A stretch of DNA of 62,879 nt, filler included, from Octopus bimaculoides (GCF_001194135.2; 7 parts of 7 records of this genome joined end to end with filler, not necessarily neighbours in it), one strand, 5' to 3'; shown: positions 6,471 to 58,500, counted from the first letter of the whole stretch. Numbers and translations: made by a program. The notes: a model not told the origin generated them from the letters alone.

Positions 6471-9339
6471 GGAGAATATATATATATCTACAGAGAGAGA
6501 GAGAGAGAGAGAGAGGAGGGAGGAAGATAGATGGATAGGTAGATAGATAGATAGATAGATAGATAGATAGATAGATAGATAGATAGATAGATACACACAT
6601 ATATATTGGATTGACAAGAACCTTAATGCCTTATTCAACAGACTGAATAAGCCAATAAAGGCAAAATTCAATCCAATATTACCAATAAATTCTCCCTTAG
6701 TAAATCTATGAGGTTCCACCATCAGTAAACATTTTGTTGTTTTCCAGAATGTCAGTCAATAATATCAGATAAGACATACATATAGATGCACACACAAACA
6801 CACACCACACACATATAAACACATGTGTGTGTGTGTGTGTTTGTATATTTATGTATGTACATATACACAGAAAAAATTGTTTATCATAATCATTGGTAAT
6901 ATCATCAGTTATAGCTATCAAAATTAATGGATCCCAATGAAAAGGTTTCATTGCAGTGTGATCACAATACCGGAGTTGTATTGTATGAAGACACACGCAT
7001 ATATGCACAACCATATATCTATCTATCTATCTATCTATACACACACACACACAAACCCATCTCTCTTGATATATGTATGTATGTATGTATGTATATATAT
7101 ATATATATATATATATATATANNNNNNNNNNNNNNNNNNNNNNNNNNNNNNNNNNNNNNNNNNNNNNNNNNNNNNNNNNNNNNNNNNNNNNNNNNNNNNN
7201 NNNNNNNNNNNNNNNNNNNNNNNNNNNNNNNNNNNNNNNNNNNNNNNNNNNNNNNNNNNNNNNNNNNNNNNNNNNNNNNNNNNNNNNNNNNNNNNNNNNN
7301 NNNNNNNNNNNNNNNNNNNNNNNNNNNNNNNNNNNNNNNNNNNNNNNNNNNNNNNNNNNNNNNNNNNNNNNNNNNNNNNNNNNNNNNNNNNNNNNNNNNN
7401 NNNNNNNNNNNNNNNNNNNNNNNNNNNNNNNNNNNNNNNNNNNNNNNNNNNNNNNNNNNNNNNNNNNNNNNNNNNNNNNNNNNNNNNNNNNNNNNNNNNN
7501 NNNNNNNNNNNNNNNNNNNNNNNNNNNNNNNNNNNNNNNNNNNNNNNNNNNNNNNNNNNNNNGTGTGTGTGTGTGTGTGTGTGTGTGTGTGTGTGTGTGT
7601 GTGTGCATGCCATTATTAAGTCAGTTGCTTTTCTTTTGTAAGGGAGAGAATCATGTCTAATCCACTCCGCCTGAGCACGACTGTGTGAGGGTAGTGTGCT
7701 TGTAGATGCACACACAGACACACTAACACACACACACACACACACACACACATACACACGCACACACACACACACACACGTATATACACATCCTATCTTA
7801 TATTGCCTAAGTCATTAATAAAATGTTAGACAGAAACCATCTCAACCATGACACTGCATTGCTAACAGCTCCGAGACAGACGGCTGTGTTCACACACACA
7901 TTAAGATGCCCCCTATTGTCATAGAACTCATTGATTGTATCATAAAGGAAAAAAAAATATGAAAATTCTGAGTGGAACACTTAAGAAACTATAATGAAAT
8001 AAAAGCAAATCGATAATAAAGTAATTACGAAGCTATTTATTTATATGTTAGATGGTAAAGTTTGTTAAAAAAAATAAAGGGAAAAATATAAATATTTATA
8101 AATGCAATCATTTCCAGGAAACAGCAGTTTCATGGGAAATAACTCATGTACTGATATTTCATCATCTACCTGGAAGAACACGTTTAAATGTAGCTTGTCA
8201 CACATGCTTTATATATGTTTATCTGACAAGGGAGAGGGGAATCTTCTAGGAAGGCTTTCTACATAATGAAAATACAGTTAAGTGGTGTGGATAAGTATGT
8301 TAGCTGCCTACATGACTATAGTATATTCAGTTTAACGCTTATTAACTTAATACTCATGATCATTATTATGACTTGTGCAATGCTACAGTCTGACCTTAGT
8401 GTACGACTATTCAAGATGGGACCCTCAAGATGGGACCCTCAAGATAGCTTCTTTGTGGTCACTTAACCCATGAGATATATCAACCATGTCTGTCATAAAC
8501 TGCATTGTATAATAGACATGGACATGTCTATATAGCTTGGAAATTTGCTTGTCGACTACATGGTACCAGGTTCAGTCACACTGCATGGCACCTTTGGCAA
8601 GTGTTTGACGCTATGGCCCCAGACTGGCCAAAACCTTGCAAGTAATTAGGTAGATACTAGATGTATCATCATCATCGTCATCATCATCATCATTTAACAC
8701 TCCTTTTCCAACATGGCATGGGTTGGATGGTACGGCATAAACCAATGAGTCTAAGGGTTGTGTCAAGGTCCAATATCTGCTTTTGCATGGTTTCTAGAGA
8801 AGGATGTCCTTCCAAACAACTACCACTTCACTGGATGTACTGAGTACTTTTGTCATGCCACCAGCATTGGAGAGGTCTAAATACCCACAAGACAAGAACT
8901 CTTAACCAAGTGGAGTAGTGTATATGTATTTGCGTGTATGTATATATATATATATATATATATATATATATATATATATATATATATATATATATATATA
9001 TATATATATATATACATATATATTCGGGACTCCAATGAAGCTATAAGGTCTTATTCAGGCACTCAACTGAGTCCAGAAACAGTCATAAGCTAATGTCACA
9101 TAACTTAATCATTTATATTTCCATACACCCACACACACGTATATATATATTCCGAGTTTCAGATGTCGGAGCAGGAACCTGCACCGGTATCTCTTCAGTT
9201 ATTGAGGCAACCAAAATATGCAGAAGAATTCAATATGGATGCCTACAATATCAATTATTCTATGTAAAACATACCTATACCATCCAGAGAACTACACTCT
9301 AAGAAACTTTTGGAAAAAAATTACAGGCATATTTTGATT

Positions 9340-9410
9340 GCCTCAATAACTGAAGAGATGTCTGAGCAGGTTTCCGCTCCGACATCCGAAACTCGGGGTT
9401 TTATTATGGC
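9340..9410 (+). ncRNA. Variant hammerhead-like motif (extra C before GAAA, GUU site)
   Basis: GCCUCAAUAA-CUGAAGA-GAUGUC...GACAUC-C-GAAA-C-UCGGG-GUU^UUAUUAUGGC. Helix I is AAUAA/UUAUU plus GCC/GGC. An inverted partial copy lies at 9150-9222. Confidence 0.45.
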
Positions 9411-9587
9411 AACCGAATAATTGTCACATATTATATTACAGATAAATTCCTCTATTTACATAATATCGAGGTCTTACCATTACTATTAATATATGTATGT
9501 ATATATATATATATATATATATATATATATATATATATATATATATATACTTTATTTAAAAGCAACAGAAATATAACAAAAAAACTG

Positions 9588-55437: not shown

Positions 55438-55504
55438 ATCCGTAGACTATAGTTTCAAAATCAACACTTTCTAATGAAAGTATCTATTTATCATCAGTAC
55501 AAAT
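55438..55504 (-). ncRNA. Type I hammerhead-like motif, GUC site, U-U at base of helix II
   Basis: Minus strand reads AUUUGUA-CUGAUGA-UAAAUAGAUACUUUC-AUUA-GAAAGUGUUGAUUUU-GAAA-C-UAUA-GUC^UACGGAU. Helix I is 7 bp (two wobbles), helix III is the palindrome ACUAUAGU. Confidence 0.65.
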
Positions 55505-58500
55505 TGCCGATATTATTATAATCCAACAGAATCTGGTTGTAGTTGTCTCCAACCAGTGAAAGCGTGCACGTGATTCTATCCATTATAAAGAGTAAAATTC
55601 AAAAGTCTTAGTTTGAATTTTTTAAGTGATCTTTTTCTAGCATATTAACAGACCACTTACTGGTCGCTTTNNNNNNNNNNNNNNNNNNNNNNNNNNNNNN
55701 NNNNNNNNNNNNNNNNNNNNNNNNNNNNNNNNNNNNNNNNNNNNNNNNNNNNNNNNNNNNNNNNNNNNNNNNNNNNNNNNNNNNNNNNNNNNNNNNNNNN
55801 NNNNNNNNNNNNNNNNNNNNNNNNNNNNNNNNNNNNNNNNNNNNNNNNNNNNNNNNNNNNNNNNNNNNNNNNNNNNNNNNNNNNNNNNNNNNNNNNNNNN
55901 NNNNNNNNNNNNNNNNNNNNNNNNNNNNNNNNNNNNNNNNNNNNNNNNNNNNNNNNNNNNNNNNNNNNNNNNNNNNNNNNNNNNNNNNNNNNNNNNNNNN
56001 NNNNNNNNNNNNNNNNNNNNNNNNNNNNNNNNNNNNNNNNNNNNNNNNNNNNNNNNNNNNNNNNNNNNNNNNNNNNNNNNNNNNNNNNNNNNNNNNNNNN
56101 NNNNNNNNNNNNNNNNNNNNNNNNNNNNNNNNNNNNNNNNNNNNNNNNNNNNNNNNNNNNNNNNNNNNNNNNNNNNNNNNNNNNNNNNNNNNNNNNNNNN
56201 NNNNNNNNNNNNNNNNNNNNNNNNNNNNNNNNNNNNNNNNNNNNNNNNNNNNNNNNNNNNNNNNNNNNNNNNNNNNNNNNNNNNNNNNNNNNNNNNNNNN
56301 NNNNNNNNNNNNNNNNNNNNNNNNNNNNNNNNNNNNNNNNNNNNNNNNNNNNNNNNNNNNNNNNNNNNNNNNNNNNNNNNNNNNNNNNNNNNNNNNNNNN
56401 NNNNNNNNNNNNNNNNNNNNNNNNNNNNNNNNNNNNNNNNNNNNNNNNNNNNNNNNNNNNNNNNNNATGTATATATATATATATATACACGTATCTATTT
56501 ACATATATGTGTGTATATCTGTGTGTGTGTGTGCGTGTGTGTATTGTATGCTTGTGTATCTATATGCATAAGGAAAAGTATTCCTTCAAATGGGTGTGTA
56601 AAACATGCAATTCTCCGGTACGTCAGTTGAATACAACAAAAATATGTATACAATTAATAGATTCGAGACAGGTATTCTCTGTATAGAATACATTTTGCAG
56701 TACTCAAGTGATTTGAACTTGAGAAGGTAGAGGATTAAATGTAAGGACAAGCAAGTTAGGCAAGTCAATAGACAAAAAATATTAAATACATTTAATACAA
56801 AAAATATACATATGTATACATATAAAAGGGCCGACTTACATAGAATAGAAATTATATGAGGAATTAAAAAGGTTGAATGAGAGTTTTACAAGTCTAACAG
56901 GTGTTTCTAGGGGATTGGTGGGCCAAAATAATGGAAACAACTGCTGGACTCATAAAACTCTTATTCAATTCCTTAAATTTCTGATATATTTTGTGTAAGT
57001 GGGAGCTTTTATATAAATACATATGTACATTATTGGTATTGAATGTATTTAAAAATTTTTTCTATATCGTCTTGCGTAACTTGCTTGTCTTTGCACTTAC
57101 TCCAGTACATATATACATACATACATGCATACATACATAAATACATACATACATACATACATACATACGCACACACGCATATGTGTGTGTGTGTGTGTGT
57201 GTGTGTGTGTGTGTGTGTGTGTGTGTGTGTGTGTGTATAAATTTATTCTATTTTCGCTTTTAAATATTCCTCTTATATGGATAATTTAGCTTTTAAACAG
57301 ATGAATAAAATAATTTTTTTTTTGTATTTCTTCCTAAAGGATAAGTAAATTGGATTATGTTTAATATTTGACTTTTTGCAGCTGTTGAATCATATTGCTC
57401 CTTTGATAGCAATAATTGTAGCGTGGCAATCAATGGTACAGATTATGTATGGAAACGATCGCTTTCTTCATTCTCAAATGATGCAGGACGACCCAAAACA
57501 GATCATTCAACAAAAACTAGATATGGTAATTATTCGACGTTTATATGATATATTACTTTGTAATTATTTTCCTTTCTTGTCCGTGACACAATGCTTCAGT
57601 CAGTAAGTTTACCAATCATCTTCAGCTGAGATTCATATGTAAAACAAAAGAAGTCTATTGTCTTGGGTATATTGTGGATGATAATAGTTTTTCCTTGTTT
57701 AGAATTTAGGTTAATTATTACGAACTTATTTGATAAGATATTCTTGATACATTATGTACCGTGCCGATCATGGTCAGATTGAGGCAGTTCTTATTCAGAT
57801 TCAAAAGCTGTAAGCTGATACATATAGACAGAAAGTGGGTAGGTAGGAAATTTCAAGTGGTTCATATTCGGAAGATAAGGACTGAGCACTAGGAGAAAGA
57901 GACACTAATTGAGTGATGAGAGAAGTTACGCTATGTAAGACAACCGGGAGAGATCGTCAGTTAATTTCTTGTAATATGGATGGTATTAATCACAAGTTGT
58001 TAACGATTAAAAAGATGAGGTAGAATATTGTTTCTTTGATATGCACAGTGATTGTGTCGTTGTGTTATAGAAAGATATACATTTGTCAAGTCCTCTTTAG
58101 AAATATGCTTTGAAAGTGTCTGTTCATAGAAGGCGCACATACTTAATAGTGCTAATGGGNNNNNNNNNNNNNNNNNNNNNNNNNNNNNNNNNNNNNNNNN
58201 NNNTTAATTAATTAANNNNNNNNNNNNNNNNNNNNNNNNNNNNNNNNNNNNNNNNNNNNGTAGAAGACACTTGCCCACCCGGAACCATGTGGTTGGTAAG
58301 CACATGGTTGGTAAGCACATGGTTCTCTTGAGAGAACATGACAATTCATATTCTTTTGTACATTATTATCGGTCGTGTAACCATAGCATAATGTTTTATC
58401 ATGGGTGATCTTCTTAGTGATGGCCCTGATGGTGGTGGTGGTGGTGGTGGTGGTTTTAGTGGTGTTAGCTCTTCTGTAGTAATTGGCAATATATCCTCAA

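Follow-up and report, generated by a model that had tools for sequence, protein, structure and literature searches.

Introduction

The hammerhead ribozymes of Penelope-like elements (PLEs) are minimal type I motifs, for which the supplement of PMC4209133 gives a metazoan consensus (CUGANGAH..GAAAN-palindrome-NUH, molluscs included) and a descriptor with a stem II of 3-7 base pairs (bp), a loop of 3-10 nucleotides (nt) and an upper limit of ~26 nt. Cleavage of the minimal motif is absent in the monomer and low in the dimer (PMC4209133), and the palindromic helix III of repeat-type hammerheads was noted in PMC3088659 and is reviewed in PMC6765202. PMC11167929 describes PLE hammerhead cleavage as protein-assisted and dispensable for insertion in vitro, where catalytic mutants had no effect. 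Here we describe hammerhead motifs in a stretch of Octopus bimaculoides DNA (GCF_001194135.2; 62,879 nt, seven parts joined end to end with filler; hereafter the window), which is AT-rich, gap-ridden animal DNA with many (TA)n and (CA)n microsatellites. An initial annotation had proposed that it holds a dispersed set of type I hammerheads of a PLE or retrozyme system.

PLEs are reported as abundant in octopus (PMC13282606, PMC8967140), and ribozymes are unmentioned in the main texts of these two papers. A hammerhead is tabulated for Hydra-1_oBim of Octopus bimaculoides (Craig et al. 2021, PMC8557442 File S2). The same work defines the Hydra clade by RWK, DKT, a CxCx5C linker, an open reading frame (ORF) of ~700 aa and a (TA)n target, treats inverted arms as a PLE hallmark, and flags eight Naiads, those of Octopus and Euprymna included, as 'half core', the second half lying 35-50 nt away.

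Type I hammerheads with palindromic helix III

The motifs that have a core, helices I and II and a palindromic helix III were confirmed as real type I hammerhead sequences. Four of them, named here by the position of C3, combine an intact core and both of these helices with a perfect 8-nt palindromic helix III:

20583..20665, minus strand: type I hammerhead (C3 20661), core CUGACGA, ACAGCUGU; predicted cut after 20587; fold z -2.97
21745..21830, plus strand: type I hammerhead (C3 21749), long-hairpin helix II, ACGAUCGU; predicted cut after 21826
38924..39059, minus strand: type I hammerhead (C3 39053), ACAGCUGU; predicted cut after 38930; fold z -4.07; multi-copy family
55438..55504, minus strand: type I hammerhead (C3 55497), ACUAUAGU; predicted cut after 55445

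The four self-complementary helix III loops reported in the initial annotation are present, AGCU twice (N17 at 20587 and 38930, both minus strand), GAUC (N17 at 21826, plus strand) and UAUA (N17 at 55445, minus strand), and each sits within the perfect palindrome that runs from A15.1 to U16.1. Helices I and II also pair around the core as had been claimed, helix I over 4-7 bp (20661 and 21749, 4 bp; 39053, 6 bp; 55497, 7 bp) and the base of helix II over 4-12 bp (20661, 12 bp; 39053, 9 bp; 21749, 5 bp; 55497, 4 bp); the base of helix II in the 55497 motif includes a U.U pair. Helix II spans 34 nt in 55497, 56 nt in 20661, 59 nt in 21749 and 105 nt in 39053. A (TA)n tract lies 85 nt downstream of the 20661 hammerhead, the AT-rich tail of the 21749 hammerhead leads into an assembly gap, and inverted arms (55315-55361 and 55624-55670) surround the 55497 motif. 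Across the window, the core (CUGANGA, GAAA and NUH in type I order) is intact in seven motifs, namely these four, 9350, 12731 and 31828. The short palindromic helix III is perfect over 8 nt in four motifs, ACGU in one and G.U-containing in one, and about eight further hammerhead motifs are truncated or decayed.

A strict type I descriptor (helices I and II of at least 3 bp each, span up to 250 nt) returned four matches: 21749 (+), 39053 (-) and 20661 (-), all with perfect 8-nt palindromes, and a chance match at 35799 (+) starting in an exon of PPIE. The three palindromic matches were reached in 0 of 300 shuffles. A relaxed scan that permitted one extra nucleotide on either side of helix II added 55497 (-), 9350 (+), 12731 (-) and 31828 (+). 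The bare string CTGANGA-N4-60-GAAA occurs 16 times in the window against 6.5 +/- 2.5 expected (300 shuffles), so that about 40% of bare matches are noise. A helix I of 3 bp or longer is combined with a helix II of 4 bp or longer in six motifs (mean 0.12 per shuffle, at most 2), and a perfect palindrome extends over at least 8 nt in four (mean 0.002 per shuffle, at most 1); none of 500 shuffles reached either count. Outside the window, both helices were formed in 0 of the 120 listed viral-contig matches to the same sequence motif, and among four matching metagenome contigs helix II, both helices together and a PLE protein match were each found in 0/4. Three occurrences of CTGAGGA were rejected as ribozymes, two (25231 and 27092) lying in a dispersed repeat and one (35799) within the PPIE exon.

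By nearest-neighbour folding, the cleavage-type monomer lies +3.1 to +6.0 kcal/mol above the minimum free energy (MFE) structure in all four best motifs, and a rough estimate for the dimer, joined through the 8-bp palindrome duplex, lies 1.5 to 4.8 kcal/mol below two MFE monomers, again in 4/4; these energies were computed without tertiary terms. The misfold at 20661 and 39053 pairs the CUG of the core with the CAG of the palindrome. The four best motifs are therefore predicted to favour a dimer fold, and a costly monomer with a favoured dimer agrees with the PLE dimer model.

Penelope-like element remnants beside the motifs

Hammerhead motifs in sense position 3' of a PLE protein remnant were seen twice, for the 9350 motif and for a decayed motif at 46338. 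PLE features in the window are as follows:

9236..9324, plus strand: first ~30 codons of a Hydra-clade PLE ORF, with one stop; profile positions 1-30, independent E-value 2.5e-4
9345..9405, plus strand: Hydra-clade-type hammerhead (C3 9350), span 31 nt, with a 9-nt self-pairing helix III that includes G.U pairs
9152..9221, minus strand: inverted copy of the 9350 hammerhead (89%); (TA)n cuts it off within helix III
9600..10106, minus strand: Hydra-clade PLE reverse transcriptase (RT) fragment, 232 bits
46525..46979, minus strand: broken GIY-YIG endonuclease with a CxxxxCxxC linker (Neptune/Nematis-type PLE), then the decayed 46338 motif in the same sense
46300..46340, minus strand: decayed hammerhead-like motif (46338), core mutated, read by eye; in the 3' untranslated region (UTR), ~190 nt past the GIY-YIG domain
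50859..51722, minus strand: separate broken PLE RT, 51% to Octopus vulgaris P0121; no hammerhead attached

The locus at 9.2 kb reads as an inverted copy, an ORF start and a 3' UTR, in that order. Its ORF start, which by eye resembles that of Hydra-1_Obim, runs straight into the 3' UTR in which the 9350 hammerhead is found and lies between the two copies of an inverted duplicate (9198/9350), with the RT fragment adjoining; the tail of the 9350 motif reaches a (TA)n end after 99 nt. The first 12 nt of core plus helix II are common to the 9350 motif and the Hydra-1_oBim hammerhead. Full-length relatives of the RT fragment have ~700 aa and carry RWK/RWR, DKT and CxCx5C; these Hydra-clade motifs were read in the closest full-length relatives, the window locus at 9.2-10.1 kb consisting of fragments only, with (TA)n flanks present. 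A Hydra-clade hammerhead antisense to its own ORF was considered and rejected, as the 26 Hydra-clade entries of PMC8557442 File S2 are sense, one inverted 5' copy excepted.

The decayed PLE at 50859-51722 shares 63-66% identity with proteins of Octopus vulgaris. The Octopus vulgaris protein P0123, annotated as an F-box/leucine-rich-repeat isoform, begins with ~150 residues of PLE reverse transcriptase, which reflects either exonisation or an annotation error.

Inverted arms occur at four loci (9198/9350, 12731, 55497 and 56907/56938). Going downstream, a microsatellite or gap is reached within 362 nt at 12/12 sites examined (two of them gaps), compared with 45% of random positions within 360 nt.

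The 39053 family in public reads

The segment 38775-39815 was compared at 82% likeness with four public sets: X23 and X24, two RNA read sets from one study of which ~6% each was read, and the contig sets X3 and X15, one of DNA and the other presumed to be RNA. The element and the gene in which it lies are:

38762..39650, minus strand: repeat body carrying the 39053 hammerhead, with its 3' end at (TA)n; no ORF recognised; intronic, antisense to PPIE
35790-35888, 40912-40938 and 42044-42125, plus strand: exons of PPIE (cyclophilin E / Cyp33), RNA recognition motif part; first exon against PDB PPIE, E 6e-13

The element lies between the first two of these exons. No RNA record was listed for the 39053 stretch, which has no bearing on its expression. 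Summed DNA contig depth for the family runs from 25,000 to 98,000 across ribozyme and tail, from 3,400 to 15,000 at 39160-39369 and from 900 to 3,100 at 39440-39649; single listed contigs are 34-85 deep, and summed depth is not copy number. This fall toward the 5' end fits a multi-copy family of 5'-truncated insertions. Depth is also about twice as high on the two core halves (97,681 and 88,398) as in the middle of the insert (43,325), with the same pattern in DNA and RNA, and RNA reads join 38969 to 39040 (15 reads with 10 starts in X23, 6 reads with 5 starts in X24). The joint points to sister copies with a helix II ~70 nt shorter; its shorter side is just 25 nt, both runs come from one study, and it is not among the listed DNA contig joints.

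Among the best 40 of 191 variant rows for the family there were no changes in the core or palindrome, and one row turns a helix I A-U pair into G-U. The covariation of helix III put forward in the initial annotation would rest on three distinct palindromes, in families that cannot be aligned with one another; within a family no compensatory double change was seen (same 40 of 191 rows). RNA reads fall equally on both strands of the 39053 region. Most are less than 95% identical to the 39053 copy (2617 of 2821 in X23 and 2000 of 2377 in X24), counts that include a high-copy repeat at 39650-39815.

In DNA contigs that short repeat, of which a related copy lies near 35279-35346, reaches ~15x the depth of the ribozyme family; it is also abundant in RNA reads, with opposite-strand joints. 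It is probably a miniature inverted-repeat transposable element or a DNA-transposon end.

Weaker motifs, family mates and other repeats

The remaining hammerhead motifs of the window are short, truncated or decayed:

12695..12734, minus strand: short hammerhead with slight decay (C3 12731; span 17); a single mismatch keeps helix III from being a palindrome
31826..31865, plus strand: minimal hammerhead GAAACGUU, palindrome ACGU; helix I in this copy (31828) just 2 bp
45617..45701, plus strand: another member of the 31828 family (86% identity), interrupted by an assembly gap beyond the first core half
53060..53310, minus strand: GAAA plus ACAGCUGU palindrome at 53233; 154-nt tail to (CA)n
56730..57110, both strands: head-to-head inverted pair of the 53233 family (56907, minus; 56938, plus), each beginning just before GAAA

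The motifs had been described as having unrelated helices. This is true of several independent families, but not of all members, as 9198/9350 (89% identical over 70 nt), 31828/45679 (86%) and 53233/56907/56938 (64-73%) are family mates. Inverted arms around the 12731 motif lie at 12471-12513 and 12795-12837. The CUGAAGA at 53300 formed no helix I or II with the GAAA-palindrome at 53233, and 56907/56938 are half ribozymes with decayed palindromes. At 8110-8140, GAAA plus near-ACAGCUGU can be read on either strand of a short near-palindrome, possibly what is left of two helix III halves that became fused.

Other repeats were also recorded. A broken non-LTR (long terminal repeat) retrotransposon, its RT domain identified by RVT_1 matches, occupies 47363-49990 on the minus strand and is presumably of the RTE type. 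A tandem array at 18797-19645 (96-108 nt units, ~70% alike) is without a hammerhead. Dispersed repeats of 140-180 nt, 78-91% alike, lie at 14945-15095, 16726-16877, 20289-20443 and 11709-11853, with further such families at 25214-25355 and 27075-27215 and at 23425-23817 and 30041-30224; these are probably short interspersed nuclear elements. Long inverted repeats without a ribozyme core are found at 52125-52267 and 4778-4935/5251-5408.

Discussion

We consider it very probable that the motifs are the 3' ends or terminal repeats of several PLE families, 5'-truncated or inverted at microsatellites, with predicted dimer-dependent cleavage. In this respect the initial annotation was borne out: these type I hammerheads are of the Penelope kind, they belong to several independent families, they are predicted to favour dimers, and most have no adjoining ORF. 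In favour are the Hydra-clade remnants at 9198/9350, the GIY-YIG remnant ahead of the decayed 46338 motif, the inverted arms, the downstream microsatellites and the falling read depth of the 39053 family. As the four best motifs lack a recognisable ORF, their PLE origin and clade are read from insertion anatomy; ordinary 5' truncation accounts for the missing ORFs.

Several observations weigh against this interpretation. When proteins of Hydra and of Neptune/Nematis type were used in tblastn and profile searches, no RT or endonuclease was found beside the four best motifs, and the stretch upstream of 39053, searched at protein level in one of three frames, yielded a repetitive protein only. 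The 12 sites of the microsatellite comparison were hand-picked and are partly non-independent. Common variants of the 39053 family at 38927 (helix I) and 39039 (helix II) would break a pair unless the partner changes, and no such partner change was seen among the best 40 of 191 rows. Rfam gave no hammerhead among the 150 window matches listed (of 167) or in local scans of 20661 and 21749, its output consisting of microsatellite-driven microRNA matches below threshold; the long helix II with a minimal helix III is the likely cause. RNA reads of the 39053 family gave no pile-up of cleavage ends in X23 and X24, a weak test in two fragmented libraries.

In the mechanism we propose, an active parent element elsewhere in the genome would be transcribed through two terminal repeats, as known PLE biology suggests. 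The 8-bp palindrome would then bring two hammerheads together for a cut after position 17, perhaps with the element's protein assisting, and the RT/GIY-YIG protein would reverse-transcribe from just inside the 3' end, usually stopping early and so depositing a ribozyme and AT-rich tail without an ORF. The ribozymes would thus act in transcripts of intact tandem elements, while solitary genomic copies such as those in the window may be mostly inert passengers, read within other transcripts. In three families a long hairpin or insert has apparently been added to helix II outside the core, the core fold being predicted to remain intact.

One alternative, which we regard as improbable, is that at least one ORF-less family consists of non-LTR retrozymes, short repeats whose non-autonomous tandem transcripts self-cleave, circularise and borrow PLE enzymes. 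The four best motifs do lack an adjoining ORF, the 39053 family has multiple copies and is represented among RNA reads, and retrozymes are known from mussel (PMC7229834) and have been argued to derive from PLE terminal repeats (bioRxiv 10.64898/2026.07.22.740005). However, hammerheads occur in 0 of the 78 tandem-repeat rows of the window (periods up to 500; gaps hide some flanks), the 39053 family reaches at least 600 nt upstream with falling depth, and for this family no back-joint within the ribozyme unit was found in X23, X24, X3 or X15, ordinary RNA-seq without an RNase R library being weak for circles. With no motif in a tandem repeat, and with 39053-family RNA reads showing neither strand bias, back-joint nor end pile-up, the new retrozyme or abundant circular-RNA system foreseen in the initial annotation was not supported.

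It is much less probable still that the host has recruited some intronic copies to cleave its pre-mRNA, PPIE being one example. Although the 39053 element is intronic in PPIE and has an intact core, it is antisense to the gene and so is absent from PPIE pre-mRNA; moreover, it is one of many copies, its monomer is predicted to misfold, and its RNA ends do not pile up. Least credible is a chance origin of the motifs from AT-rich repetitive DNA: bare strings do arise randomly and Rfam calls none, but for the structured set chance is refuted by the shuffles and by the viral and metagenome matches, none of which forms both helices, although weak motifs such as 53300 and 46338 may have arisen by chance.

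More tentatively, octopus PLE families may carry a long-armed class of dimer hammerheads, with a helix II of 35-105 nt that varies in length within a family around a fixed core and escapes both Rfam and the published descriptor; half-core Naiads might hold complete ribozymes, and the insert could stand in for the usual contact between loops I and II or serve as a binding site for the element's protein. If such a class exists, animal hammerhead counts are too low and some 'half-core' or ribozyme-less PLE families may have been misjudged. Were the long-armed motifs to cleave, surveys of cephalopod and other invertebrate ribozymes would be missing whole families, and the claim that some PLE clades are without hammerheads would need a descriptor permitting long inserts. 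The natural length variants of 39053 would probe the contribution of helix II in PLE ribozymes.

In the Naiad_Obim and Naiad_Ovul 3' ends (PMC8557442 File S5), GAAAC stands upstream of CTGATGA with flanking complementary arms, resembling, by eye, a permuted hammerhead more than a half core. Naiads are characterised by an N-terminal GIY-YIG with DKA and CxC motifs. No sequence support was found for a link between them and the window motifs; the GAAA-palindrome strings of the window had 0 matches in the published Naiad consensus text, where line breaks may conceal a match.

The initial annotation had called the system uncatalogued, which is only partly true, since the Hydra-1_oBim hammerhead is in PMC8557442 File S2 and the palindromic helix III is that of the published consensus. 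Full-text searches returned no papers devoted to long-armed PLE hammerheads or cephalopod retrozymes (Lunse et al. 2016 and Arkhipova et al. 2017 lying outside coverage), and five short strings from four motifs other than 9350 (two of them from 39053) had 0 matches in the PMC8557442 consensus files.

The motifs share with the PLE hammerheads of PMC4209133 the type I topology, the CUGANGA/GAAA core, a short helix I, a palindromic helix III and AU-rich flanks, and likewise occur mostly as solitary truncated copies, with inverted pairs 100-700 bp apart, in many unrelated families per genome and with dimer-type cleavage, which here is predicted. They differ from the published descriptor in size, as the four best span 34, 56, 59 and 105 nt and no window motif fits the published dimensions with a minimal helix III and a helix I of at least 3 bp. 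Animal non-LTR retrozymes (PMC7229834) are similar in being type I, with a weak helix III, non-coding, dispersed and known in a mollusc, but differ in their tandem ~300-bp units and abundant circular RNA, neither of which was found here.

Hydra-clade hammerheads (PMC8557442 File S2) also lie at (TA)n sites, have near-palindromic helices III of 9-10 nt beginning ACAG, ACUA or ACUC, and frequently show U.U at the base of helix II, as in 55497; the 9350 motif with its ORF remnants fits this clade. The listed animal Hydra hammerheads have loops of 3-10 nt and odd or interrupted palindromes, in contrast to the perfect 8-nt palindromes of the four best motifs. The long helix II is most like that of the Selaginella PLE-X hammerheads (PMC8557442 File S2, marked non-canonical; loops ~29-35 nt, span ~50 nt), which are from a plant, endonuclease-less and rDNA (ribosomal DNA)-targeting, and none of which attains 105 nt. 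The palindromic, dimer-type helix III and the PLE link are thus already published, and it is the helix II spans of 56, 59 and 105 nt that set the octopus motifs apart from those in print.

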